DNA of 64,000 nucleotides from positions 147,684,001-147,748,000 of the forward strand of contig NC_091984.1 in the NCBI RefSeq assembly GCF_044704955.1, given 5' to 3'. Below, piece by piece: positions 5,495 to 51,800 of the stretch. The notes below the pieces were generated by a model. It had not been told where the DNA came from. It searched no databases and saw only the letters and a list, made by a program, of their open reading frames with translations. The DNA is from Pristiophorus japonicus (lineage: Eukaryota). Position 1 is the stretch's first letter; the number at the start of each line of letters is the position of its first letter. The position numbers were made by a program, and so were the translations under genes.

Positions 5495-8335
5495 CCTGGC
5501 CTGCTACCTTCAGGGATCTGTGGACATGCATACCCAGGTCCCTTTGTTCCTCTACACCTTTCAGTATCCTGCCATTTAATGTGTATTCCCTTGCCTTGTT
5601 AGCCCAAATGCATTACCTCACACTTCTCCGGATTAAATTCCATTTGCCATTGTTCTGCCCATTTGAACATTTCATTGATATATTCCTGCAGTCTACAGCA
5701 TTCTTCTTCATTATCAACCACACGGCCGATTTTAATATCATCTACAAAATTCTTAATCATATCCCCTACATTCAAGTCTAAATCCTCGATATACACCACA
5801 AAAAGCAAGGGACCTTGTACTCAGCCCTGCGGAATTCCAGGGGAAACAGCCTTCCAGTCACAAAAACACCCATCAACCATTACCCTTTGCTTCCTGCCTC
5901 TGAGACAATTTTGGATCCAACTTTCCACTTTGCCCTGGATCCCATGGGCTTTTACTTTCGATACCAGTCTGTAAAGTGGGACCTGATCAAAAGTCTTGCT
6001 AAAATCCATAGACACTACATCAAACGCACAGCCCTCATCGACCCTCCACACACAGATTATCTTTATGGTCTCAATTAGGCCAATCTCTTTCTTTAATTAT
6101 CCTCCTGCTCTTAATGTATTTATAAAACATCTTTGGGTTTTCCTTGATTTTACTTGCCAAAATGTTTTCATGCTCTCTCTTTCCTAATTTTCTTTTTAAT
6201 TGCACCCCTGCACTTTCTATACTCCTCTAAAGTTCCTGCAGTATTGAGCCCTCGGTATCTGTCATAAGCCTCCATTTTTTACTTTATCCTACACTGTATT
6301 TCCCTCGACATCCAGGGCCACTAGATTTGTTAGCCCCACCCTTTTTCTTTAAGGGAACAGACTTACTCTGAAACCACAGGATTTCCTCCTTGAATGCCTC
6401 CCACTGCTCTGACACTGATTTACCTTCAAGTAGCCGTTTCCAGTCCACTTTGGTCAAATCTCATCTCAGCTCAGCAAAATTGGCATTTCCCCAAATGAGA
6501 AATTTTATTCCTGGTCTATCTTTGTCCTTTTCCATAACTACCCTAAATCTAACTGAATTAGGATCACTAGCACCAAAATTCTCTCCCACTTATACCCCTT
6601 CCACCTGCCCCTCTTCATTCCCCAAAACCAAGTCCAGAACCGTCCCCTCCCTTGTTGGGCTTGTTACATACTGGCTAAAAAAGTTCTCCTGAATGCATTT
6701 TTAGGAATTCCGCACCCTCTATACATTTCACACTAATTTTATCCCAGTTAATATTAGGGTAGTTGAAATCCCCGACTATTACTGCCCTATAGTTTTTGCA
6801 ATTGTCAGAAATGTGCCTACTCTTCTCTCTCCCTCTGACTGTTTGGGGGTCTATAGTACACTCTCAGCAGTGTGATTACCCCTTTTTCGTTCTTCAATTT
6901 GACCTATATGGCCTCATTTGATGATCCTTCCGACATATCATCCCTCCTCACAGCTGTAATTGTTTCTTTCAATTGTTTCACAACTGCGAACTCCTCCTTT
7001 TTTATCCCCTCTCTATTCCATCTGAAAACCCTGTAACCAGGAATGTTGAGCTGCCTTACCTGCCCTTCTTTCAGCCATGTCTCAGTAATAACTATAATAT
7101 CGTACTCCCAAGTGTCTATCTGTGCTCTCAGCACATCTGCCTTATTCCCTATCCTCCATGCATTGAAGTATATACCATTTAGCACTGCCAAACTACCTTT
7201 TTGTCTATTTTCTAGGCTTTGTTTCCTCTGTATTCCAAATTCACTTTCTGCTTTTCTGCTTTCCAATTCCAGCTTTGCTTCTCTCCCCACTGAATCCATT
7301 CTCCGGTTCCCATCACCCTGCCAAGCTAGTTTAAACCCTCCCCAACAGCACTAGCAAACCTCCCGCGAGGATATTGGTCCCGGCTCTGTTGAGGTGTAAC
7401 CCGTCCGACTTGTACAGGTCCCACCTCCCCGAGAAATGGTCCCAATGCCTCAGGAAACTAAAGCCCTCCATCCTGCAACATCTCTCCAGCCACGCATTCA
7501 TCTGCTCTATCCTCATATTTCTGTACTCACTAGCTCGTGGCACCGGGAGTAATCCGGAGATGACTACCTTTGAGATCTTGCTTTTTAATCTCTCTCCAAG
7601 CTCCCAAAACACTGCCTGTAGGACCTCATCCCTCTTTCTGCCAATGTCATTGGTACCGATATGGACCACAACCTCTGGTTGTTCACCCTCCCCCCTCAGA
7701 ATGTACTGTTGCCACTCAGTGACATCCTTGACCCTGGCACCAGGCAGGCAACATACCATCCTGGAGTCACGTCTGCGGCCGCAGAAATGCCTGTCTGTTC
7801 CCCTAACTATCGAATCCCCTACCACTATTGCTCTTCCACTCTTCTTCCTCCCCCCTGTGCAGCTGAGCCACCCGTGGTGCCGTGGACTTGGCTCTGGCTG
7901 CACTTCCTAGAGGAACCATCGCCCCCACCAGTACTCAGAACACAATACTGGTTGGAGAGTGAGATGGACTCAGGGGACTCCTGCACTACCTGCCTGGACC
8001 TCCTCTTCTGTCTGGTGGTCACCCATTCCCTCTCTGCCTGCACACTCTTAAGCTGCGGGGTGGCCACCTCTAGAAACGTGCTATCCACGAAGTTCTCAGC
8101 CTCGCGGATGCACCGCAGTGACTCCAGCCGCCGCTCAATCTCCGAAACGCGGAGCTCGAGTTGCTGTAGCTGGTGACACTTCCTGCACATGTGGTCGTCC
8201 AGGCCACGAGAAGTGTCCAGGACTTCCCACATGCCACAGGATGTGCACTCCACGGGACAGAACTGCCCTGCCATGCCTCGATTTAAAAGACTGAGAACTA
8301 ACTTAGCAGAAATAAACTTAAAACTAAAAAAAAGC
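5495..8335 (-). mobile_element. CR1 LINE retaining its 5' end: ORF1 plus internally deleted ORF2 (EN/RT)
   Basis: EN motifs IYFNAWRI/ITETWL; RT FVDDIKI; ORF1 upstream. Confidence 0.93.
7326..8274 (-). pseudogene. CR1 ORF1p: Cys zinc finger, leucine zipper and SGNH/GDSL esterase domain (frameshifted)
   Basis: CTSCGMWEV...CRKCHQL; LELRVSEIERRLESL; VVGDSIVR, HIGTNDI and DGLHLN esterase blocks. Confidence 0.9.
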
Positions 8336-25483: not shown

Positions 25484-26012
25484 GTCGGGATATGACTCAC
25501 AGCTCAGACTGTGCGGCATCCAGTGATGCAATGTTGTATCGTGGGTTCAAGCCCCACTCCAGGGACCTGAGTGCAAAATAAAGACATACACTACTGTGCA
25601 GTCCTGAGGGAGTGCTGCACTGTCAGAGGGGCAGTACTGAGGGAGTGCTGCTCTGTCGCAGGAGCAGTACTGAGGGAGTGCCGCACTGTCAGAGGGGCAG
25701 TTCTGAGGGAGTGCTGCACTGTCAGAGGGGCAGTACTGAGGGAGTGCTGCATTGTCAGAGAGGCAGTACTGAGGGAGTGCTGCACTGTCGCAGGAGCAGT
25801 ACCGAGGGAGTGCCGCACTGTCAGAGGGGCAGTTCTGAGGGAGTGCTGCACTGTCAGAGGGGCAGTGCTGAGGGAGTGCTGCATTGTCAGAGAGGCAGTA
25901 CTGAGGGAGTGCTGCACCGTTCGAGGGGCAGTCCTGAGGGAGTGCTGCACTGTCGGAAGAGCAGTACTGAGGAAGTGCTGCACTTTCGGAGGGGCAGTAC
26001 TGAGGGGTTGCC
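25484..26012 (+). repeat. SINE head followed by about 13 tandem copies of a 33-bp SINE-body unit (GCAGTACTGAGGGAGTGCTGCACTGTCAGAGGG)
   Basis: gggttcaagccccactccag B-box, then the 33-bp array; inverted copy at 46044-46520. Confidence 0.9.
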
Positions 26013-27917
26013 TGTAGGTGGTTCTCTCAGCCGTACCAAAAACGCACCTCCTTCTACAAGTTCTGGACGATAGGGATTATATGGACAGATGAGACTCAGA
26101 CACACGTTTTTCGTGTTCAACCGTATTGTGTTTAATAAGATTAACAACACCACTCATAAACAGTGCAAAACAGTACAACCCTGGCTTGTCCAATAAGCCC
26201 TGCCGTGCTAAGTTACCACGGCTTAATAAAAGGACCCTCCCATGAAATAAACTAACACAGGACCACCCCCCGCCCAGCACTAAACCCCTTGGGTTTGGTT
26301 GGGACTTACAATCAACCCCTCACACAGCTAAATGGTCTTGTGGATGTGTAGGCGCAGGCAATATGCTCACCCGGATTGCCCGTTGTCTTGCTTGCAGCTT
26401 CTTCCTGAACGTCTCGCTCCTGGGTTTATTCCTGGGCTTTTCTGGAGCTTTTACCGGAGCTTTTTCCTGGGCTTTTTCCTGAGCTTCTTCCACCTGAGCT
26501 GGAGTTTGTTGCAAAGTGGCTCCTTATATCCCCAAAACCCATCACTTTTCCTCCCGCCAATATTGACCGATGAATTGACTCCAGTGATCTGTCTGGACCC
26601 CTCCTCCTCCCCCTCTCCCCGTGGCCTGGAGTGGTTCGTAGCCTTTGAAATCTTTGTGAAAAATGATGTTTTATTTTCCCGCTCCCAGGCCTTGCATCTG
26701 GAGAGACAATGGGTGCTGATTACTGGATGTCTGTCATTTCCTGAGTTGATGGCCCCCATTTGCAGGTAATGGGTTTCGATCACAAACCAATCTTGCTGAA
26801 CCGGCTTATCTCCTGGAAGACAATGGCCTGGCCATTTCCTGCCTTGCACCAGTTTGGGTTGGGACTGAGTCGTGACTGTGCTTTAATAATGCGAGGGCAC
26901 AGTGTCTCTGAGTTACCTCTCGGGGTATTGTTCCCAGTAATCACTTTAGATGGTGATGACATCAATGGGCCTGGGTTCCCTATTACCCAGCCTGTCAGTG
27001 TGAAATGTCCGGTTGTATATGAATGCAGCTTAGTGCCACCCCACAACCTCGCCAACAGTACAGTTCTTTCTTGGGGATTTGGATTTATGGAATTAAAATA
27101 TTGTTGATAGAAATGGCCAGAAAGCTGGTGCTACAATCCCCCTGATCATATTTTGTCACCAAAACCAGAAATATCTCGAATTGCGTTGTCTTCTGCTGCG
27201 GGAGGTGCATTGTGGGTCCATAACTGATCAATTACACCCGGGCTCCCGTTTCTTCTGATTTCCTGATTAAGACAAACAGATACAGCAGCACCGTTCTCTG
27301 AGCGCTTTTTCCCTCCACAGGTCGGGCTTTCGTTATTTACATATATATGCAGTTCGTTCCGCATTATCGAGTGCCCCCAGTTAAAATCTCTCCTGTTGGG
27401 GCCTCTTGCGGCTTGCGGCCGGTGAATAAGGAGGCGTCCATGGCGCCCTAGGCCGTGGTATCCGACTGTTTCTCCTTACTACCCCGCCATCTGGGTCATC
27501 ATCATCATCCTACACCATGGGAGGAAGACCAGCGTCCACCAGGCTCATTATTGTGCCCTGGTTTCTCTTTGCCTTTGTCTTCCCCACCTCGGGGTTAAAC
27601 AACTTGCACTGGTTGATATGGTAGCATTTTGTATGTTTCGGGAGTCTGACTGCATATACCATGGGGCTGGCCTTATCTACGATGTTATAAGGCCCCATGT
27701 ACAGTGGCTCGAATGCCCCCACTCGGGCACAGTTCCTGAACATTACCTGGTCTCCCACCTTCCACTCGTGGCTTCTCCGGGGATCAAGTAGCAACCGATG
27801 TTTCCCGGTGCTGGTTCCCCACGTTACTGGCTGCCTGCCAGTGAATCTGTTTTAAAACATCAAACAGATTCTGGACCAACCAGTCCCGGTTTACCTCGCG
27901 GTCATGAGCTCATGTGC
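26013..27917 (-). mobile_element. 3' remnant of retrovirus-like provirus 1: integrase C-terminus (27500-27917), unknown 3' cargo (about 26320-27400), PPT and 3' LTR (26013-26310)
   Basis: ORF 27510..27794 (GDQVM...EPLYMGPY) is similar to provirus 2 IN; LTR TGTAAG...CCTACA preceded by a purine tract; LTR and cargo duplicated at 44942-46043. Confidence 0.85.
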
Positions 27918-28735
27918 TGCAAGGTGTTAAATTTTCCACTCTACTCTGATTCATAGACCTCGGGAATTACAGGAAGGACTCCACGTAATGCAAAGTTTAG
28001 GCTTAAACCCAACTGTTATTTTGTTACACAAAAAACAACAAAACATTACAGAACAAGACTTCTTAGAGATTGACCGAAGACATACAATCGCCCATCCAGC
28101 CAGTTGCTGCTGTTGTCCATTGTCGGCTCGTGGAGCGAGGGAAGGTGTTGTGGCCCTGCTGCTGCTTCGTGGCTGTAGTTCATTGACCTGCTGGTCTGAG
28201 ATGTTTCTTCGACCTGTTCTTCCTCTCTCTGAACCTTTGTTCTCAGCTCTTACAGATATATCCATTCGATTATACACATCTCCTGCTGGGCTGCCTTTCA
28301 GTTAATGCAGCTGGATGAGTCTCGATGGCTGTGGTGATGGGTCTGGATCTGTTCGGACGGCCACAATTCACACATGTAATCGACGGGGCAAAAGATAACT
28401 CCTTATCTTTTGTGCCCCGTTATCCAAGAATGCACGCCTTGTGGGATTCTTTGTTGTCCTGGGTTTTCGCAGACTTGGTGTCTCCAGAGGAAACTGGTTT
28501 TCCCCTCCGGCCAATGAATCAATGGGCTCCTCTGCTTGATTGTATCAAACCCTTTGTCTCGACATTAATCGGGTCTCACTCCTGACCCCAGAAATCACAT
28601 TAATCAGTGATCAGTCATCACCTGCCCCAGGCTGGTGCTCTTTCTCCTTCCCTGCAGTCCCAAAGGTTTTCTTTTAAGCAATTTTAGTCCATGGCCTCTT
28701 GCTGTGCCTCGATCATGAAACATATAACCCTTACA
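27918..28735 (-). repeat. 3' LTR of provirus 2
   Basis: On the minus strand starts TGTAAG after the PPT and ends ...TTGCA; shares blocks with the 5' LTR (cactctactctgattc, cagacttggtgtctcc, taagcaatttt). Confidence 0.85.
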
Positions 28736-28749
28736 CTTCCCCCTTTAAT

Positions 28750-30086
28750 ATCTCTTGTTATAAACTCAGAGACATTACTACAGGTGGCTTCTTCTTCTTT
28801 CCATTGAGCTCTTTTGGGTGTATTGCAGTCTTCAGTCAAATCTCCATTGACATACTTTTTACAACAAAACAATGTTTGGCCTTAATCCATCTGACTTCAG
28901 TTTATACTTTTACAAACACTTTCGCCTTGGTTGATTTTAATAACCCTTCAAGATTCCCTTCCCTCATCTTTTGCTTTAATTAACAGGACAAGACGAATAG
29001 ATACAACACTATTACCAACTGTATAATTACTAACAAGTATAATACAATTCGAAACCAGGATGGGATCTCAATATTGAGTCCCACATCCCACTGTGGAGGG
29101 GCAATCATTTCCTCAATTTCCTCCCTTACTTTTTCGTTCTTTTGGTGTGACGTGTAATAATGTTTGTGGGACAACTCAATGTTCTTTAACAGTTCAGTCA
29201 AATGTTCGAGGAACAGTGGGATATAGTATCCAACACGCGATATGTATCCCTCGAGGTTCGTAACGTATCATTGACTGTAATATGGATATGTTTGTGGTCT
29301 GAGATAGGAATTATTCTTTCTTGTGCTACCTGTGCCTCTACCTGGGGTTTGAAACAAAAGGAAGAATCTGTCAGCATTTTAGGGAGAGGTTTTAATCTGC
29401 TTGCGATCAGTTCGGTCGCATTTACTGCCTTTGGTCAAGGTCACACAGGAATCAAAACCCTGCGTCCAATTCATTCCTGACCCAAAATCCTGTCATTGTC
29501 ATTTAAAAACAACCCCCACACCTCCCCTGCATTTCTGGCTAGATCCAACCACACAGACATAAATCCCTTGTTCCTCCTTCCACCACTTTTCCCAACACAA
29601 TTTCACCCCTTCTCTTGTTCCTCTGCTCCGCCTGTTTGAGTTATTACCCAGTTTCTCCCATTCTGTGGATGCATTAACTTTTCCCCTGTCTTTTTCTGTA
29701 ACCACCACCACCCTCCCATGGGGGCAATCCCTTTACATTCCAGACAAACTCGTCTCCCCTCTCTCACCCGTACATTCCTGGTCATGTTGTTTAGCCTGGG
29801 GCAGGACACTGACACCTCCCCAAGTTTACCCTCGGTTTGTCTGGAGTACTTGGTCGAATTTGACCCTAACCACCCTGGCCAGCTCCCAGTGTGAGCATAG
29901 GTGTTTTTGCCCTTGTTGCTCCGTATGGCTCCCCCTTGAGTTACAGTGGGGCCGGTTCCTCCCATACACCCGTGTGTAAGGAATGTCTCGGTGTCTCCCC
30001 GATCTCCCAATCCTTTAATAATAATGGCCATCCACAGGCCTATCCACAACGTCCACCTCCTCTCGTACCCTTGGCTCGATTCGCTC
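28750..30086 (-). pseudogene. env: env-position ORF: signal peptide, Ig-like domain (about 29500-29776), short stalk, heptad region, TM (28983-29057) and cytoplasmic tail; frameshifted
   Basis: WTLWIGLWMAIIIKG; NVRVREGRRVCLEC...WWWLQKKTG...KLCWEKWWKEEQGIYVC; LTELLKNIELSHK...VREEIEEM; WFRIVLYLLVIIQLVIVLYLFVL; located between IN and the PPT. Confidence 0.75.
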
Positions 30087-30274
30087 CTATAAAGACAAAA
30101 ATGAAAGAAATACCTTTGCTCTGTGGGGCCTCCCCCTCACAGATCCTCCTTCAGTTTTTCACAAATGTACATAACTCCTTTTTACAATCACTGCTTCCTT
30201 CTCCTTTTATCCCGATGCTTGGGCTTACAGAGGCTCGGGGGTGGAGATGGAGGAGGTGTCCAGGGCACCCTAGG

Positions 30275-33200
30275 TCACAGTACCTGACCACTCCACCTTA
30301 CTGCTCCGTCCCTTACTTCTCCATCCTCATCATCCCACAGTATTGGTGGGAGGCTTACACTGATCAAACTCATTATTGTTCCTGGGGCCTTGGCCCGCTT
30401 TTTATTTTTCTCTCCGGGGTTGTACAGCTTACACTGGTTTATATGGAACCATTTTATATGTTTTGGCAGCTGGATTGCGTACACCATAGGGCTTGCCTTG
30501 TCTACAATGCTATATGGTCCTTTGTACAATGGTTCAAATGCCCCTATTCGGGCATAATTCCTGACCATTACCTGATCCCCTGCCCTCCATTCCTGTGTAA
30601 CCCAGAGTTCCAGCAGCAGTTTATTCTGCTGGTGCTGCCTGCCCATATTGTTAGCTGCTTCCCAATGCAGCCCCTTCAGAGTACCATACAGATCTCTGAC
30701 AAACCTGTCCCGTGTGATCTCTTTAACCTGCGTTTCAGTCAGGACTGGTGCTAGGATATAGGTCGGGGTCCTCATTAGTCTCCCTGTCATCATGGCATGT
30801 GGGGAGTGTCCCGTACTCTTAGAGAGACTGGCTCGGTGGTTCATCAGTATTCGGGGTAGGGTCTCATCCCATTTCTTCGGGGTATCTCCTATCTCCTTCC
30901 TAAGCCTCTCTTTTAATGTCCGATTTGTCCTCTACTGGATCTAACGATTAGGGGTTATACGCCACATGAAATTTCCCCTGTATCCCTAACAGCTTTAGGG
31001 TGGCCTGCATTACTGCTCCGGTGAAATGACTCCCTTGATCTGATTCCACTATCAGGGGCAGTCCCCATTGAGAAAATACTTCTCGCACCAGAATCTTTGC
31101 TGTGACTATCGCGGTGGCCCCGACATGGAAAAGCTTCAACCCATTTTGTAAAGAGATGTATTAACACCAAGCAATATTTATTGCCTCTGCCTGAGGTGGG
31201 CAGTGGCCCAATGAAATCTATCTGTATAGACTGCCATGGCCCCTCTACCCTCCTCGTGTGTCCCAACGGAGCCTTCCTCGGTGGGGGTCTGGATTGTTTG
31301 TGGCACATACCAGACAATTCTGGCAATAATCCCTGACATCACTTCTAAGCCCGTACACCATCCCACGGCTTCTACTTTATTCCACATTGTTTCTGGCCCT
31401 GGATGTCCAGCTCCTGGACCCACATGCACCAGCTGCAAGAATTCTTCCCTGCACTGCCCTGGCACGATCCAACTATGTCCCTTGAACAACATTCCTTGCT
31501 TTACTGCTATGTCTGCAGCTCCCAAAGATCCCACTGCAGACTTCCCGTCTATTTTGTCCCTAATCGCTGCTCTAAGGTCAGCATCCCGTAGCTGAGCCTG
31601 TTTTAAATCAGGCGACAATGCGACTTCTTTGGGCCTCTCTCTGCCTGTTACAGCCGTGATCTGTCCACAGTGACATGGGTCCCAAGGTGTCACTTCTCCT
31701 GCCCCTGTTTTAGCCAGTGTGTCTGCTTTCTCATTCCCTTCCCACTTGGGCTCTGTCTTAGCGTGTGCTTTGACCTTTTGGATGTAGTCACCCTTCTGGT
31801 CCGTACCCTTGACGTGCAAAATGACTTTTAACAATGGAACCATCACCAACCATTTTCCATCTGAGGACTTAAACCCTCGCCTCGCCAATATGGCTAAATA
31901 CTCTGTACAGGAGTTAGAAATGAACATGGAGTCTGAACATATCGTATAGGGAGTTGGGAATTCGTTCGGGTGTGTGACTACATACGCTACTGCTGCTAGC
32001 TCGGTCTGCTGCGTACTTAAAGTGTTGGGGATTTTATGGCTTTCTTCATCACTGCCTCTGGATCGTAAATCCCACAGCCTGTCTTTCTCTCTCTGTTTAT
32101 TACTGAACTAGACCCATCTACATAGACGTCCCTGCCTGTCAGGTGTTCTCCTGCTCAGAATCCCACATCTACATCCCACACTCCTTCCACTGAACACACA
32201 TGAGCTGCCCCCGGATAAACCAGGCTCGGGGCGAGCTTTGGTTCTCCTGGCCTCTCGACCTTCAGGTCTAACTGAGTAAGCAACAATGTCCAGCGGGCAA
32301 TCCTGTTACTGCTCACTGTCCCATCTTTCATTCTATCATCCAGTAACACTTGTGTCATGGTGTGACAGGTCAGTAAAGTTACTGTAGCTAACCCTGTGAG
32401 CGATCGAAAATGCTTCACTGCCCAAAATGTTGCTAACAGATGTCGTTCGCAATTCGAAAAGCTCTTTTCTATTTCGGTGAGAACTCGGGAGGCGTAGGCC
32501 ACCGGTCTCAGCTTGCTGTGTCGCTCCTGGAGTAACACTGCACTCAAACTGTCCCCAGTCATTGCTACCTCCAGACTAAAGTCCTGGTCCCCATTTACTG
32601 CTCCCGATGCTGATGCTGTCTGTAACACCTCTTTTAACCAAATGAAAGTTTCCTGACAAGTCTCACTCCATTCCCACTCTACTCCTTTCCTAAGAAGCCT
32701 CAACAAAGGAGCTGCCATGGTTATATATCCCTCTATGAATTCCCTGCAGTAACCCGTTATTCCCAGGAAAGACCTTACTCCAGACACGTCCTTAGGAACA
32801 GGCAGTTCCTGGACTGTCTTTCTCTTAGCTCTATCGATGGCCCTTTCTCCTGCCCTAATGGTCAAACCTAGAAACTGCACCTCCTCTTTGCCTATTTGAG
32901 CTTTCTTGGGACTGACTTTAAAACCTGCTTCTTTCAACAAATGCAGTAACTAACTCAATAATGGCCTGTGGTCCTCCGCACTTTCGGAGAATAACAACAG
33001 GTCATCCACGTATTGGACCAACCGGTCTGGCTGACTAAAACCGTTTAATGCCTCGGCCATACTTTGGTGAAAGATCGAGGGACTGTTGTGAAACCCTTGT
33101 GGAAGACATGTCCACGTATACTGCTGACCTTTAAAGGTAAAGGTAGATTTATACTGGTCCTCCCGTCTCAGGGGAATGGACCAAAACCCGTTTGAAATGT

Positions 33201-34078
33201 CCAGCACTGTGAAAGTTGTTGTGGCCGCAGGGATACTCCCGATCAAATCCGCTACCACTGCTACCGTGGGCGCACAGGCTGGAATATTTTTATTCAGGAT
33301 TTGGTCATCTACCGTGGCCCTCCATGAGTTATCGGGCTTCTTTACTGGCCATAGGGGTGAGTTTACATGTGTGGCTATGGTCCTCAACACACCTTGATCC
33401 ACCAGGGAATTTATAGCAGTTTCCAAATCCCTTTCTGCTTCCCGGGGAAAATTATACTGTTTCTAGGGTCGTGTCATCGAATCCCCATCTATCTTCACCT
33501 CTACCCCAGATACTCTCCCGCAATCGTGCTTGTGCATTGCAAACGCATCCATATTCTCCCGTACATACCTTGATACCGGGCCGGAGTGTTATCGACGAAT
33601 CGTTCTCAGTCATAACTCCCTTTCGGCTTCATCGTGCAGGTGCTGCCTTTGTCTGTACTGTCCCTGGGAATCACTACGATCTCTCCCATCTTATCTGCAT
33701 CAACTGCCCCCCATAGACAATTGTTTTCCATATCCACTATGGTGTGGTGTGTCAACATGCAGTCGGCCCCGAGAACTCCCGAACCGGGCTGTTCCCACTT
33801 CATTAAAATGCCCTCCCATTTCATTATGTTCGGTCCTAACTCTACGGTTAAGGGTTTCCACACTGCCCCAGCCTGCTCATTACCCGTAAAACCCACCAGT
33901 GTAAATGGACTCTGCTCGACCACGGGGAAGTGGTCAGATTCGGTGAGTGGACAACCGTGCTAGAGGCTCCTGTATCTACTAGATCCCTTCCCCTAACTGT
34001 TTCCACCTTCACATCCACACATGGCCTGCCCCACCCATCATATATGAACAGACACAGGTATTCTGGCTGGGCACACCG
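30275..34078 (-). pseudogene. pol: pol of provirus 2: protease, RT, degenerate RNase H (tether), second RNase H, integrase
   Basis: LVDTGAS; LDISNGF, LPQGFHNSP, QYVDDLL; RPVAYASRVL...CERHLLA; VYVDGSS...QQTELAAV...SDSMF...KAH...GNEKAD; IDFIGPLP, SDQGSHF, GPY. Confidence 0.93.
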
Positions 34079-37000
34079 TCACAGTGGGGGTGCCGACACA
34101 TTGGGTCCCTTTTCTCCCACTGCTGCGTCCAGCTTTCCTCCACCCGTGCCCATAACCTGCTGTAATGCGGCCACTAAAACCTGCACTGGGTCGTCGGCTA
34201 CCTTCTTCTGGCCTTTTCCTGCCTCAGCACCTCGTACCCTGGCTTCCCTCCTTTAGAGAGCCTACAATCCTTGCTCCAGTGTCCCAACTTCCCACAGTTA
34301 AAACATTCACCTTTAGATCGACCCGCATTACCTCCCTCTTGTCTCCATTCTTTCTATGGCCTAACCTCTCCTTTTACTTCGTGCACCTTCCCGTTTAGTT
34401 TCTCCTCCTCCCCTTGCCTAGACTTAAAGCTAGAGTTAATCTTCTCAGCACCCCTGCCTCTGTATTCTGGAGATGGTCTGGGTCAAACCATGCTTTGACC
34501 TTTGCTCTGAGCCGTGGCAAACTGTTACCATTACGGTTCTCAGCCAATGGTCCCTGGGTTCCCCTATTAAATCTGCCCGTACCAGATTTCCTACAGCAGC
34601 CCTAAAATAAATCGCCCACAGTCTGTCTGCAAACGTATCGGGTGATTCGTTTACTTGCTGCCTAGTCTGTTCTACCTGCCAGAACGGACTACCCTGACTG
34701 TACCCGAGCACTGCCATCATTTGCTCCTTTAAGCCCTGTGGGGTTCCTGCACCTAACTTGGTGGCTGTCGACAAGCTCTGATAAAGCTTCCCCTCCAGCG
34801 AGAGCAGTGTTAGCTGCACTTTCTCCTCCTCGCTGCAGTTATTGATACCCGCTATCTGCTCTATATTAGTAAAATGAACAGAGGCATCTCCTCCTTGCTT
34901 TAACTGTACTACACCCGTCAGCATCTCCTGCAGCTGAAGCGGTGTGTATGGGATCACTAGTCGCTCTGTAATGGTGCCGGACCACCATTTGGGGGGGTGG
35001 GCTGAATTTCTGCTGTCTCAAAGGACACATCGGTTTCAGGGGTCCCGGTGCCTCGGGAGCCGGCTGATTTTTTTTTTTTTATTTCAAAATATACTTTATT
35101 CATAAAAAGAATCTGTACAGTACATTCAATGGTATTTCATTACATTTCGCTGCGGTCAGCAATCCCTTACAATACATCTGGGTGCCGACGGCAGTTTCGT
35201 TCGTTACATTTCTCGTTTTTCTGTTCAACTGCGATTCAGTACAATAAACAGGGTACATTGTGGTACATTTACTCAAATTACATTTCATGTGTTACAATAC
35301 AGAGCCCGGAATGGGTGATGGTACATTTACATTTTTTCTTTTCAAACTTGCATTTCATAACACACCTTACATTGTACATGGCACGACATTGGTGTTTACA
35401 GGTTTGGTGCTCTATGTACACAAAGTGTAAATTACAAATACAAATACAAATACAGCCCGAGGGAGTTTGGTGCTGATTTCTGCCCCCGGGTTTTCCGTGG
35501 CGGAAGGGTTTTAGACTGTGGCCCTATCCCACCGTGCCTTTGCGGCGACTGCACCAATTTTCAGTGCGTCCCTCAGCACGTATTCCTGGATCTTGGATTG
35601 CGCCAGTCTGCAACATGCGGACGTGGTCATCTCCTTGTTCTGGAAGACCAGCAAGTTTCGGCAAGACCAAAGAGCGTCTTTGACCGAGTTGATGGCCCTC
35701 CAGCAGCAGGTGATGTCTGTCTCGGTGTGTGTCCCTGGGAACAGCCCGTAGAGCACAGAGTCCTGTGTTACGGAGCTGCTTGGGATGAACCTCGACAGCA
35801 ACCACTGCATCTCTTTCCAGACCTGCGTCGCAAAGGCACAATCCTGAAGGAGATGGGTGACAGTCTCGTCCGCCCCGCAGCCGGCCCGGGGGCACCGTGC
35901 CGTGCTGCTGAGGCGTCGGCTGTGCATGAACACTCTGACGGGTAGGGCCCCCCTCACCGCCAACCAAGCTACGTCTTGGTGCTTGTGTGTGAGCTTTGGC
36001 GATGAGACGTTCTGCCAAACAAGTTCGACAGTCCGCTCAGGGAACCACCCGACAGGGTCCACCGTCTCCTTCTTTCGGAGGGCGTCCAGGACCTTACGTG
36101 CTGACCACTGTTTGATGGCCTTGTGGTCAAAGGGGTTTCTTTTGAAGAACTTTTCCACGAAGGACAGGTGGACAGCATGGTCCAACTGGTGGGGGCGTTT
36201 CGCGGCAGCGTGGCCAGACCCATCCTTCTCAACAATGGGGACAGGTAGAACCTCAGCACGTAGTGACACTTGGTGTTTGCGTACTGGGGGGCTGTGCATA
36301 GCTTGATGCAGCCGCACACAAAGGTGGCCATCAGGATGAGGGCCACGTTCGGAACGTCCTTTCCTCCACTGTCCAGAGATTTGTACATCGTGTCTCTGCG
36401 GACACGGTCCATTTTGGATCTCCAGACAAAGTGGAAGACGGCCCGGGTGACTGCCGCAGCGCTGCAGCGTGAGATGGGCCAGACCTGCGCCACGTACAAC
36501 AACACCGAGAGCACCTCGCTCCTGATGACCAGGTTCTTGCCTGTGATGGAAAGGGAGCGCTGCTCCCAAAATGACAGTTTCTGTCTGACCTTGGCAATGC
36601 GCTCGTCCCAGTTTTTGGCGCACGCCCCGTCCGCTCCGAACCATATTCCCAGCACCTTCAGGAAATCTGGCTTGACGGTGAAGGGAATGGAGGCTCGGTC
36701 GGTCCAGTGACCAAAGAGCATGGCCTCGCTTTTGGTGCGGTTGACCTTTGCTCCCGAGGCCAGTTCAAACTGGTCGCAGATTGCGAGCAATCTGCGGACC
36801 GACTGCGTGTCCGAGCAAAAGACGGCGACGTCGTCCATGTACAGCGAGGTTTTGACCTGGGCGCCTCCGCTGCCTGGGATCGTCACCCCTCTGATGCCCG
36901 CGTCCTTCCTGATGGACTCGGCAAAGGGAGCCGGCTGATGCTCGTGATACTCGGGCCCATCGTCTGACTCTTTCCCCTCTGGATCCCAATCTTCCTCGCC

Positions 37001-44941: not shown

Positions 44942-46043
44942 ATTGTAGCTCCAGCTTTCTGGCCATTTCTATCAACAATACTTTAAATCCTTAAATCCAA
45001 ATCCCCAAGAAAGAACTGTACTGTTTAGGGTGCTTGTGGGGGTGGCACTGAGGTGCATTCATATACAACCGGACATTTCACACTGACAGGCTGGGTGGCA
45101 GGGAACCCAGGCCCATTGATGTCATCACCATCTAAAGTGATTCCTGGGAACAATATCCCGAGAGGTAACTCAGAGACACTGTGCCTTCGCATTGTTAAAG
45201 CACAGTCACCACTCAGTCCCAACCCAAACTGGTGCAGGACAGGAAATGGCCGGCCCATTGTCTTCCAGAAGATAAGCCGGTTAAGCAAGATCGGTTTGTG
45301 ATCGAAACCCATTACCTGCTAATGGGGGCCATCAACTCAGGAAACGACAGACATCCAGTAATCAGCACCCATTGTCTCTCCAGATGCAAGGCCTGGGAGC
45401 GGGAAAACAAAACACAATTTTTCACAAAGATTTCAAAGGCTACGAGCTGCTCCAGGACACGGGGAGGTGGGGGGTCCAAACAGATCACCGGAGTCAATCC
45501 ATCGGTCAGTATTGGCGGGAGGAAAGGTGATGGGTTTTGGGGATATAAGGAGCCGCTTTCCAAAAAGCTCCAGCTCAGGAGGAAGAACGCTACGGAAAAA
45601 GCTCAGGAAAAAGCCCAGGAAAAAGCTCAGAAAAAACCCAGGAGTGAGACGTTCAGGAAGAAGCTGCAAGCAAGACATCGGGCAATCAGGGTGAGCATAT
45701 TGCCTGCGCCTACACATCTGCAAGAACACTTAGCTGTGTGAGGGGGGGTTTGAAAGTCCCAACCAAACCCAAGGGGTTTAGTGCTGCGGGGGGGTCCTGT
45801 GTTAGTTTATTTCACGGGAGGGTTCTTTTATTAAGCCGTGGTAACTTAGCACGGCAGGGCTTATTGGACAAGCCAGGGTTGTACTGTTTTGCACTGTTTA
45901 TGAGTGGTGTTGTTAATCTTATTCAACATAATACAGTTGAGCCTGAAAAATATGTGTCCGAGTCTGATCTATCCATATAATCCTATCGTCCAGAACTTGT
46001 AGTAGGAGGTGCATTTACGTTACGCCCGAGAAACCCACCTACA
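44942..46043 (+). mobile_element. Second copy of provirus 1 3' cargo, PPT and LTR (45751-46043)
   Basis: agggggggtt PPT followed by TGAAAG...CCTACA; inverted match to 26013-27137. Confidence 0.85.
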
Positions 46044-46520
46044 GGCACCCCCTCAGTACTGCCTCTCCGATAGTGCGGCACTCCCTCAATACTGCCCCTC
46101 CGGCAGTGCGGCACCCCCTCAGTACTGCCAATCTGACAGTGCGGCACTCCCTCAGTCCCGTCACTCTGACAGTGTGGCACTCCCTCAGTACTGCCCCACC
46201 AACATTGCGGCACTCCCTCAGTACTGACGCTCCGACAGTGCGGCATTCCCTCAGTACTGCCCCACCAACATTGCGGCACTCCCTCAGTACTGCCCCCCTG
46301 ACAGTGCAGCACTCCCTCAGTACTGCCCCTCTGACAGTGCAGCACTCCCACAGTACTGCCCCTCTGACAGTGCAGCACTCCCTCAGGACTGCACAGTAGT
46401 GTATGTCTTTATTTTACACTCAGGTCCCTGGAGTGGGGCTTGAACCCACAATACAACATTGCATCACTGGATGCCGCACAGTCTGAGCTGTGAGTCATAT
46501 CCCGACCTCAGTTGGAACAG
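46044..46520 (-). repeat. 33-bp SINE-derived tandem array plus SINE head (right-arm copy)
   Basis: About 11 copies of gcactccctcagtactgcccctctgacagtgca. Confidence 0.9.
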
Positions 46521-48864: not shown

Positions 48865-51800
48865 TTTTTTTTAGTTTTAAATTTATTTCTGCTAAGTTAG
48901 TTCTCAGTCTGTTAAATATAGGCATGGCAGGGCAGTTCTGTCCCGTGGAGAGCACATCCTGTGGCATGTGGGAAGTCCTGGACACTTCTCGTGGCCTGGA
49001 CGACCACATGTGCAGGAAGTGTCACCAGCTACAGCAACTCGAGCTCCGCGTTTCGGAGATTGAGCGGCGGCTGGAGTCACTACGGTGCATCCGCGAGGCT
49101 GAGAACTTGGTGGATAGCACGTTTCGAGATGTGGCCACCACTCAGCTTAAGATTGTGCAGGCATGAGAGGGAATGGGTGACCACCAGACAGAAGAGGAGG
49201 TCCAGGCAGGTAGTGCAGGAGTCCCCTGTGTCCATCTCGCTCTCCAACCAATATTCTGTTCTGAGTACTGATGGGGGCGATGGTTCCTCCAGGAATTTCA
49301 GCCAGAGCCAAGTCCACGGCACCACGGGTGGCTCAGCTGCACAGGGGGGAGGAAGAAGAGTGGAAGAGCAATAGTGGTAGGGGATTCGATAGTTAGGGGA
49401 ACAGACAGACATTTCTGCGGCCACAGACGTGACTCCAGGATGGTATGTTGCCTGCCTGGTGCCAGGGTCAAGGATGTCACTGAGTGGCTGCAGTACATTC
49501 TGAGGGGGGAGGGTGAACAGCCAGAGATTGTGGTCCATATCAGTACCAATGACATAGGTAGAAAGAGGGATGAGGTCCTACAGGCAGAGTTTAGGGAGCA
49601 AGGAGAGAGATTAAACAGTAAGACCTCAAAGGTAGTAATCTCCGGATTACTCCCGGTGCCACGTGCTAGTGAGTACAGAAATAGGAGGATAGAGCAGATG
49701 AATGCGTGGCTGGAGAGATGGTGCAGGACAGAGGGCTTTAGTTTCCTGAGGCATTGGGACCATTTCTCGGGGAGGTGGGACCTGTCCAAGTCGGACGGGT
49801 TACACGTCAACAGAGCCGGGACCAATATCCTCGTGGGGGGGTTTGCTAGTGCTGTTGGGGAGGGTTTAAACTAGCTTGGCAGGGGAATGGGAACCGGAGA
49901 ATAGATTCAGTGGAGAGAGAAGCAAATCTGGAATTGGAAAGCAGAAAAGTAGTAAGTAAATTTGGAAGACAGAGGAAACAAAGCCCAGAAAATAGACAGC
50001 AAAGATGGTTGGCAGTGCTCAATGGCATATACTTCAATGCAAGGAGTATAGTGAATATTGCAGATGAGCTGAGAGCACAGATAGACAATTGAGAGAACGA
50101 TATTGGGATGGAAATTCTGACGTGTCCGGGCCCGTACGTAGTTTCTACGGACCCGGGAAGGCATCGGAAAAGTCGGTTTTCAACGTGCAATGCGCATGCA
50201 CTGAAAACCTGCTTTTCCGATCTGTCAAGCTGGAGCTGGAGAGATCGTAGCCAGATCATGAGCGAGGACATTTGTACGGGCAAGATGGGACTATTTATCC
50301 ATATCTTGCCCAGCAAATGTCCTCAAAAATCATAGCCTACTTTTACAGGCGTAAGTGCTTTAAAACATACAGAAACAATTGTAAAATAAAATTATAGACA
50401 TTTAGTTTATTGTTCAAAAACCTCCCCACTACAGTAAGTTTATTACCATAATTAAAAAAACTTTTTTAGCAATCGGGAACATATTTTATTTCTATAAGAC
50501 ATAATAACTTTAATTTCAAATAATTTTAAATATCTGTGGTCTGTTTTTTAGTTTTTATTATTTTGTGTGTTTGGTTTTGTCCCCATTAATAGCACTGAGA
50601 ACTGGTAGATACGCGAGTCTTAGTGCTATTAATGGGAACTTGTGAACTACCTACCTGATTGGCTGAGCAGCCACACATGACTGCATCTTCTGCGTGGGAA
50701 CCCTCTGGACTGGATCGTGCTTAAATGCATTCAGGAGAATTTTATCAGCGAGTATGTAACAAGTCCAACAAGGGAGGGGACGGATCTGGACTTGGTTTTG
50801 GGGAATGAAGAGGGGCAGGTGGAAGGGGTATCAGTGGGAGAGCATTTTGGCGCCAGTGATCATAATTCAGTTAGATTTAGTGTAGTTATGGAAAAGGACA
50901 AAGATAGACCAGGAATAAAAGTTCTCAATTGGGGAAAAGCCAATTTTGCTGAGCTGAGATGAGATTTGGCCAAAGCGGACTGGAAACAGCTACTTGATGG
51001 TAAATCAGTGTCAGAGCAGTGAGAGGCATTCAAGGAGGAAATCCTGTGGTTTCAGAGTAAGTCTGTTCCCTTAAAGAAAAATGGTGTGACTAAAAATCCT
51101 AGGGGCCCTGGATGTCAAGGGATATACAGTGTAGGATAAAGTAAAAAATGGAGGCTTATGACAGATACCGAGGGCTCAATACTGCAGGAACTTTAGAGGG
51201 GTATAGTAAGTGCAGGGTGCAATTAAAAAGTAAATTAGGAAAGCAAAGAGAGAGCATGAAAACATTTTGGCAAGTAAAATCAAGGAAAACCCAAAGATGT
51301 TTTATAAATACATTAAGAGCAGGAGGATAATTAAAGAAAGTGTAGAGCCTATTCGAGACCATAAAGGTAATCTGTGTGTGGAGGCGTAAGACGTGGGTAT
51401 GTTTCTGAATGAATACTTTCTGTCTGTTCTCACAAAAGAGAGAGGCAATGCAGACATTGCAATCAGGGAGGAGGAGTGTGAAATATTAGATGAAATAAAC
51501 ATAGTGAGAGAGAAAGTATTAAGAGGCATAGCAGCTTTGAAAGTGGATAAATCCCCTGGCCCTGATAAAATGTATCCCAAGCTGTTAAGTGAAGCAAAAG
51601 AAGAAATAGCACAGGCTCTGACCAACATTATCCAATCCTCTCTGACTACACGTGTGGTGCCAGAGGTCTGGAGGACTGGTAATGTTGTACCTTTGTTTAA
51701 AAAGGGAGAAAGGGATAGACCGAGTAATTGCAGGCCAGTCAGCCTAACCTCATGGTGGGAAAGTTATTGGAAAAAATTATGAGAGACAGGATAAATCTTC

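Follow-up and report, generated by a model that had tools for sequence, protein, structure and literature searches.

A dead sawshark env remnant reveals a retroviral Env family with a probable immunoglobulin-like head and a predicted F-like core

What kind of gene stands in the env position of a decayed retroviral element on the minus strand of a 64,000-nucleotide stretch of the sawshark (Pristiophorus japonicus) genome, hereafter the window, and does it still make a protein? A preliminary description of the letters had recognized an immunoglobulin (Ig)-like domain followed by a stalk, a heptad helix and a transmembrane (TM) segment, and had left two readings, either an env whose fusion core was deleted or an Ig protein that the virus carries and anchors in the membrane. 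By comparing the window with copies elsewhere in the genome, and with relatives in other species, we found that the locus is a dead, internally deleted remnant of a shark endogenous retrovirus env, and that there is a real family architecture behind it, in which an F-fold Env bears a probable Ig-like head. The window's parts are as follows.

27925..35068, minus strand: defective provirus, running from a gag remnant through pro, pol and env to the 3' LTR, without its 5' end and 5' LTR
34445..35017, minus strand: gag remnant, placed by its position in the gene order; no Pfam match
33606..33959, minus strand: protease remnant, without a Pfam match, placed by its position and by its resemblance to the protease region of the sister family
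32670..33462, minus strand: reverse transcriptase with the motifs LPQGF and YVDD (Pfam RVT_1, E 2e-23)
32392..32670, minus strand: tether, the first, degenerate RNase H (Pfam RT_RNaseH_2, E 4e-20)
31700..32047, minus strand: second RNase H of a dual RNase H layout (Pfam RNase_H, E 7e-10)
30275..31465, minus strand: integrase, broken; its Pfam matches, to Integrase_H2C2 and to a C-terminal SH3-like domain, lie below cut-off
29996..30086, minus strand: env 5' end, with a splice acceptor at 30087/30086 predicted from a polypyrimidine-AG motif, the site of the lost family Met codon (30061) and a signal-like stretch
29807..29995, minus strand: N-terminal segment of about 60 residues preceding the Ig-like domain, without a confident fold (pLDDT below 50 in both models)
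29502..29806, minus strand: probable Ig-like domain (Cys 29740, Trp 29710, Cys 29555), with a frameshift near 29691
29374..29501, minus strand: linker, interrupted by two stops (29501 and 29495) as well as by a frameshift near 29434
29364..29373, minus strand: deletion junction, about 1.15 kb gone by comparison with dispersed copies
29049..29363, minus strand: end of the F-like core (its final strands) and the HRB helix, with a frameshift near 29260
28980..29048, minus strand: transmembrane helix (TM 29048-28992, KD 3.1)
28736..28746, minus strand: polypurine tract
27925..28735, minus strand: 3' LTR, TG...CA, 811 nt

The order gag-pol-env between LTRs is seen in the window's gene order together with its 3' LTR, and in another locus (L057) that keeps both LTRs, the one clear pair, 85% identical to each other; the 5' side of the window's provirus abuts the poly-A tail of a LINE (about 35069-35083). 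Every env feature named in the preliminary description, i.e., the signal, the Ig Cys-Trp-Cys triad with its spacing of about 60 residues, GxYxC, the stalk SFCFKPQ, the heptad helix and the TM, was located on this strand, with the B-strand Cys at 29740, the C-strand Trp at 29710, the E-strand Cys at 29597 and the F-strand Cys (in GIYVC) at 29555; additional Cys residues of the domain lie at 29806, 29749 and 29531. The signal-like hydrophobic stretch (30052-29996) is weak (mean KD 0.9), and a stop at 28982-28980 truncates the cytoplasmic tail. A single frameshift had been assumed, between the C and E strands, and one is not sufficient: besides that near 29691, which the window shares with L002 alone (2/21 deletion-bearing copies), the copy has two more, near 29434 and near 29260, together with the stops at 29501 and 29495, the loss of the Met codon at 30061, and the deletion. 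Most likely, no product is made from this env copy.

The deletion is defined by copies of the family dispersed through the genome, which align to the window through 29364 and resume at 29373 with intervening sequence present. Among 51 dispersed loci examined, both flanks are present in 36, and all 36 carry extra sequence at the junction (925-2863 nt; 1097-1261 nt in 32 of them; median 1152), against none of the 21 near copies. The stretch that they retain encodes F2-like strands, an RxKR furin site, a fusion peptide and HRA, along with a Cys-rich region, and its loss took away most of domains I-III, so that the fusion peptide missing from view in the window lies in what was lost. About 1.15 kb of fusion core has been removed from the window env and its near copies, and the first of the two original readings stands, with the longer copies that it called for found outside the window; the gap had been expected between IASR and LKPLP, and it actually lies just past LKPLPKML. 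Of 40 loci chosen by the core alone, 31 are preceded by 69% or more of the Ig stretch, and one dispersed copy (L047) holds a natural frame of 476 codons that runs from the Ig region through RWKR and the fusion peptide to HRA. The family is large, with 150 loci scored out of 14,889 first-look candidates in the 5.9-Gb genome; a word-seeded search with one member (L035) returned no longer homologues among 1242 candidates.

A second Env family in the same genome, 52% identical to the window's over 444 residues, provides examples of the whole protein. Of 15 loci (L077-L091), selected for long frames out of 124 listed, 5 have the same Ig-plus-F layout in a natural frame of 706-748 codons. This family is less decayed than the window's, with 124 loci scored of 19,443 first-look candidates. 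Full-length copies present F2, furin site, fusion peptide, HRA, domains I-III, HRB and TM in that order, and the predicted model of a natural frame, which is the Env of the sister family and not of the window's own, reaches a pLDDT of 70-90 across much of the core. With Foldseek this core matched the F protein of hPIV3 at E 8.5e-11, among 223 matches at E<=0.001 that also included RSV and NDV F, and with VIA (Z 10.6, rmsd 16.6, 300 aligned) the top seven rows were all paramyxovirus or pneumovirus F, followed by foamy virus Env (8rm0, Z 7.8). These fold matches back the earlier guess of an F-like core, and the core is predicted, with near certainty, to fold like paramyxovirus F. At the sequence level, Pfam Fusion_gly matched none of the scanned frames, PDB searches with single frames gave nothing below E 0.17, and PDB profile searches gave no significant Ig or F match. 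In the viral library, the best match of one model (md6a9e387d858) was the Env of walleye epidermal hyperplasia virus (E 4e-12, TM 0.25, rmsd 31), a lead which hints that the Env of walleye epsilonretroviruses (WEHV1, WDSV) may also have an F-type core.

Relatives of the sawshark Env were found in a skate, bamboo sharks, a catshark, a whale shark, a horn shark, a smooth-hound and two frogs, and its Ig-like head is found also in the second sawshark family, in a skate and, weakly, in frogs. Searched with a profile of the Ig region, the heads of Pelodytes and a bamboo shark beat 200 of 200 shuffles, yet with scores of just 6.0 and 4.3 bits. The head of Mantella is 33% identical to that of Pelodytes but was undetected by this profile (122 of 200 shuffles reach its score). 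Three of these relatives, from the bamboo shark (P0014) and the frogs (P0019 and P0026), are annotated as complete Env-like genes; the cluster from Mantella, with 16 members, looks like a young family, and P0014, a single-member cluster, could be co-opted. Two relatives (P0009, P0011) combine the same F-like core with a different, Cys-rich head. Together with P0016, these are shark Env relatives in which that Cys-rich N-terminal domain, to which no fold was assigned, sits on the F-like core. Since other lineages carry a different head or none, sequence comparison suggests that the head may be a swappable receptor-binding domain.

The head also diverges faster than the core: between the two sawshark families 43 of 99 head residues are identical, compared with 144 of 249 in the core, and the N-terminal segment of about 60 residues ahead of the Ig-like domain is kept between them. 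Within the window's family (49/50 loci, CpG removed), singleton variants are neutral (omega 0.91 in the Ig stretch, 1.03 in the core) and shared variants mildly constrained (0.77 vs 0.58), which points to weak purifying selection on the Ig stretch; raw pN/pS values of 0.28-0.40 were dismissed as inflated by CpG decay, and the CpG-free omega was used instead. The Ig arm is Trp-rich and bears N-glycan sequons, and a Cys in the linker is kept in 16 of 16 rows. A host IgSF donor, proposed earlier as a thing to look for, did not emerge: HMMER gave 28 hits among 1.84 billion representatives, with no host IgSF protein among the 20 named. Two of the hits (P0025, P0029) were set aside as repeat-protein noise. 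Some host gene models (Niban, zinc finger, pentraxin; P0005, P0008, P0050, P0051, P0057) include spliced-in pieces of these elements, which may reflect exonisation or errors of annotation.

Retroviruses have a single surface protein, so that receptor binding would fall to an F-type Env itself, and the fast-evolving, swappable, linker-tethered N-terminal Ig-like domain appears to be the likeliest binder. We regard the full-length Env as a probable Ig head, a linker and an F-like core, and consider it fairly likely that the head is a built-in receptor-binding domain. Furin cleavage at RxKR would leave the Ig arm on the F2-like subunit, where it would bind a cell-surface receptor and help to trigger HRA/HRB refolding; given the fold, such an arrangement seems reasonably probable. 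The arm would then do the job of the separate attachment protein of paramyxoviruses or of the receptor-binding domain inserted in foamy virus Env. Paramyxoviruses have a separate attachment protein, and neither paramyxovirus nor pneumovirus F is known to have an N-terminal arm.

Captured Ig domains frequently serve viruses as decoys, and the arm could instead be an immune shield or decoy that masks the fusion core or mimics a host IgSF ligand, as its Trp-rich sequence with N-glycan sequons and the spread of a headless lineage (Loki-Pyo) would allow. This is unlikely, as a single retroviral glycoprotein requires an attachment site, and a mimic would usually stay near its model, whereas the donor search described above brought up no host IgSF protein among its 20 named hits. 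Quite unlikely, too, is a purely structural role, in which the arm would cap the prefusion trimer and clamp it, or aid its folding, while the F core binds the receptor, as in pneumovirus F. The extra Cys pairs and the conserved linker Cys could tether the arm to the core, and a headless Loki Env is known, but an unrelated domain replaces the arm in some lineages, and the arm's faster divergence is that of receptor-binding domains.

Ig domains share a B-strand Cys, a C-strand Trp and an F-strand G-x-Y-x-Cys, with 55-75 residues between the two Cys, and the env head follows this rule, with Cys-x9-Trp ... G-x-Y-x-Cys and 60 residues between the Cys (positions 88, 98 and 149 in alignment A1). The B Cys is kept in 17 of 19 rows, the Trp in 18 of 19 and the F Cys in 16 of 17, and the extra Cys of the E strand, which the window has at 29597, is kept in all 17; this conservation spans the two families, a skate and a whale shark and is above chance. 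The preliminary description could have failed if the two Cys motifs had belonged to different proteins, and in 10 of 21 deletion-bearing copies a single natural frame is open from the signal across both. Although confidence in the model of the Ig region is low (pLDDT 41.7 on average and about 55 within the domain), all of its Foldseek matches listed are Ig domains (best E 2.5e-3); VIA placed it near Ig-like sandwiches (rmsd 3.5, 106 aligned) at Z 6.5, in a range below 8 that commonly arises by chance. The Atlas readings, taken from homologues standing in for the window's family sequence, were 0.92-0.93 for the skate domain, all 10 of its family hits belonging to the Ig clan, and 0.89 for a frog head. 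Pfam Ig_3 reached E 0.008-0.15, below cut-off throughout, in 11 natural frames from a scan of 24 that included several not spanning the Ig region. None of the curated Ig profiles (V-set, I-set, Ig_3) passed, the best scoring 17.1 bits against a cut-off of 30, which weakens the assignment to a set and not the call of the fold; in PDB, the A1 profile found no Ig chain and the A2 profile reached a best E of only 0.1. The bamboo-shark homologue P0014 is named 'Ig-like domain-containing' in UniRef.

A viral-origin beta-sandwich that merely resembles an Ig domain would suit the fact that every sequence match is under cut-off, as well as the transglutaminase and reovirus domains among the top VIA rows. 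That reading is distinctly improbable, given the Cys and Trp spacing and the independent indications of the Ig clan by Foldseek, Pfam and Atlas, and the models and motifs make an Ig fold of the N-terminal head probable.

The deleted copies raise the further question of why they are so numerous at one place. They are concentrated at 143-149 Mb of the window's contig (C8) and on contig C1231. The window itself contains an Ig light-chain constant exon with a frameshift (56214-55886, minus strand), and at least 40 scored copies of this exon, 98-100% identical, lie on C8:143.5-148.5 Mb and on small contigs, which places the window within a shark light-chain multicluster. Because the light-chain exon copies occupy the same region, the deleted proviruses were most likely amplified passively, along with the multicluster. 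The light-chain cluster as donor of the Env head is unsupported, because the window's C exon, the part of the cluster that was compared, fails to match the Env Ig profile (score -3.5).

A frame survey spanned 22 of 25 loci, the remaining three being undeleted copies. The family Met codon is lost in 21 of 21 deletion copies, the frameshifts near 29434 and 29260 are common to all of them, and an open frame from signal to TM occurs in none. In the Ig stretch of these copies (L001-L020 and L036), 17 shared variants are non-synonymous and 1 synonymous, in small numbers; small as they are, this skew exceeds the neutral expectation. It is hardly credible that the gene still makes, after its deletion, a functional Ig protein, whether anchored in the membrane or secreted and perhaps co-opted within the light-chain cluster, since the points in its favour (a window junction read through in one frame, an Ig domain frame open in 10 of 21 copies and a location among the light-chain C exons) are set against a junction that would be in frame by chance one time in three, a commonest post-Ig stop that seems to lie at an Arg codon prone to CpG decay and recurs in a dispersed copy (L051), the breaks shared by all copies and a variant ratio with no purifying signal. 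The anchored-Ig protein of the preliminary description is accordingly not supported, and we regard this reading as an artefact and largely refuted.

As to the virus itself, the dual RNase H (tether plus new RNase H) is common to all retroviruses, and affiliation was sought in the reverse transcriptase (RT). In a core of 47 residues, picked after the match was seen and counted by hand against references from the supplement of Wang and Han (PMC7947760), identities are 35 with snakehead retrovirus (SnRV), 26 with WDSV, 23 with SFV, 21 with Loki-Xla and 18 with Loki-Str. The RT thumb region is about tied by eye, the PDB ranking for RT is MLV, then foamy, then Ty3, and the tether and integrase resemble those of Loki-Pyo by eye; the two best integrase relatives are named NYNRIN-like, the names being automatic ones for shark ERV proteins. 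The element probably belongs to the SnRV clade (class III-related Orthoretrovirinae), judging from the RT core (35/47, the best of five references) and the shark host, which it shares with a clade that includes the elephant-shark CmiERV lineage I (PMC4422223, PMC12193657). The accessible parts of these two papers describe no F-like or Ig feature for SnRV Env, and the likeness is one of the RT core.

The lokiretroviral label suggested earlier suits the Env, which is Loki-like with a core predicted to be F-like, and is doubtful as to the virus, because the RT core is nearer to snakehead retrovirus by hand count; on sequence grounds we describe the element as resembling a lokiretrovirus at the level of Env without filing it as one. 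In so far as lokiretroviruses are described in the available text of PMC7947760, the two share in Env the signal, RxKR, fusion peptide, coiled coil, Cys-rich core, TM and F-like fold, and beyond Env the dual RNase H and the NYNRIN-like integrase relatives. The sawshark Env differs in about 210 extra residues (Ig-like domain and linker) ahead of the core, absent from the published Loki-Pyo Env, where the core begins directly after the signal with no head, and its RT has LPQGF where Loki has a PFGY motif (PMC7947760). Six cartilaginous fish genomes are listed there without the asterisk that we take to mark a Loki-positive genome (PMC7947760), and four of the six hold relatives of the sawshark Env.

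Two other systems are instructive. Foamy virus Env likewise combines a paramyxovirus/pneumovirus F core with a receptor-binding domain of its own, which is a novel fold inserted in the core after HRC (PMC11468914), whereas the extra domain of the shark Env is N-terminal and Ig-like. Env-Dbi (Hotzel 2024, 10.1101/2024.03.17.585361) has an N-terminal Ig domain (SIRP-like IgV) proposed to be a captured receptor-binding domain; it is alpharetrovirus-like, gamma-type and mammalian with a clear donor, in contrast to the F-like core and lack of a detectable donor in the shark. With paramyxovirus and pneumovirus F, what is alike is the fold predicted for the core. The combination of an Ig domain with an F-like Env seems to be undescribed in print: no description was found in the literature searched, and the word 'immunoglobulin' does not occur in the available main texts of PMC7947760, PMC9040795, PMC13524379, PMC13709493, PMC12440569 and PMC10435555 or of two preprints, including 10.1101/2021.11.23.469661.

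The locus itself is an ordinary dead copy, and it is the family it reveals that bears on the origin of retroviral Env, for which four scenarios are laid out in the available text of Wang and Han (PMC7947760). If an F-fold Env indeed sits on a pol with an SnRV-like RT core, the F-type Env is not restricted to lokiretroviruses and foamy viruses. A tentative wider reading, to which we give less than even weight, is that SnRV-clade retroviruses of sharks, skates and frogs carry an F-type Env with an anciently captured, V-like and swappable Ig head, and that the F-type core is an ancestral retroviral Env to which receptor-binding domains were added independently at differing places, in foamy viruses, Loki and possibly the walleye epsilonretrovirus as well. 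Being present, replaced or absent by lineage, the Ig-like head offers a small, separable domain for asking how an F protein attaches itself, and the family suggests an abundant class of shark ERVs overlooked by screens baited with gamma-type Env or Loki RT.

Around the provirus, no tRNA was found in the 64-kb window. Just past the 3' LTR (27410-27900, minus strand) lies a second integrase C-terminal fragment, from a related element, with about 65-77% identity to dispersed copies. GDSL-esterase frames typical of LINE ORF1 occur with 33-nt tandem arrays in opposite orientations (7334-7906, 49272-49871, 25499-26092 and 46000-46428), and the remaining window, in a Pfam scan that covered 78 of its 118 frames, is mostly LINE, Gypsy and Harbinger-type debris.
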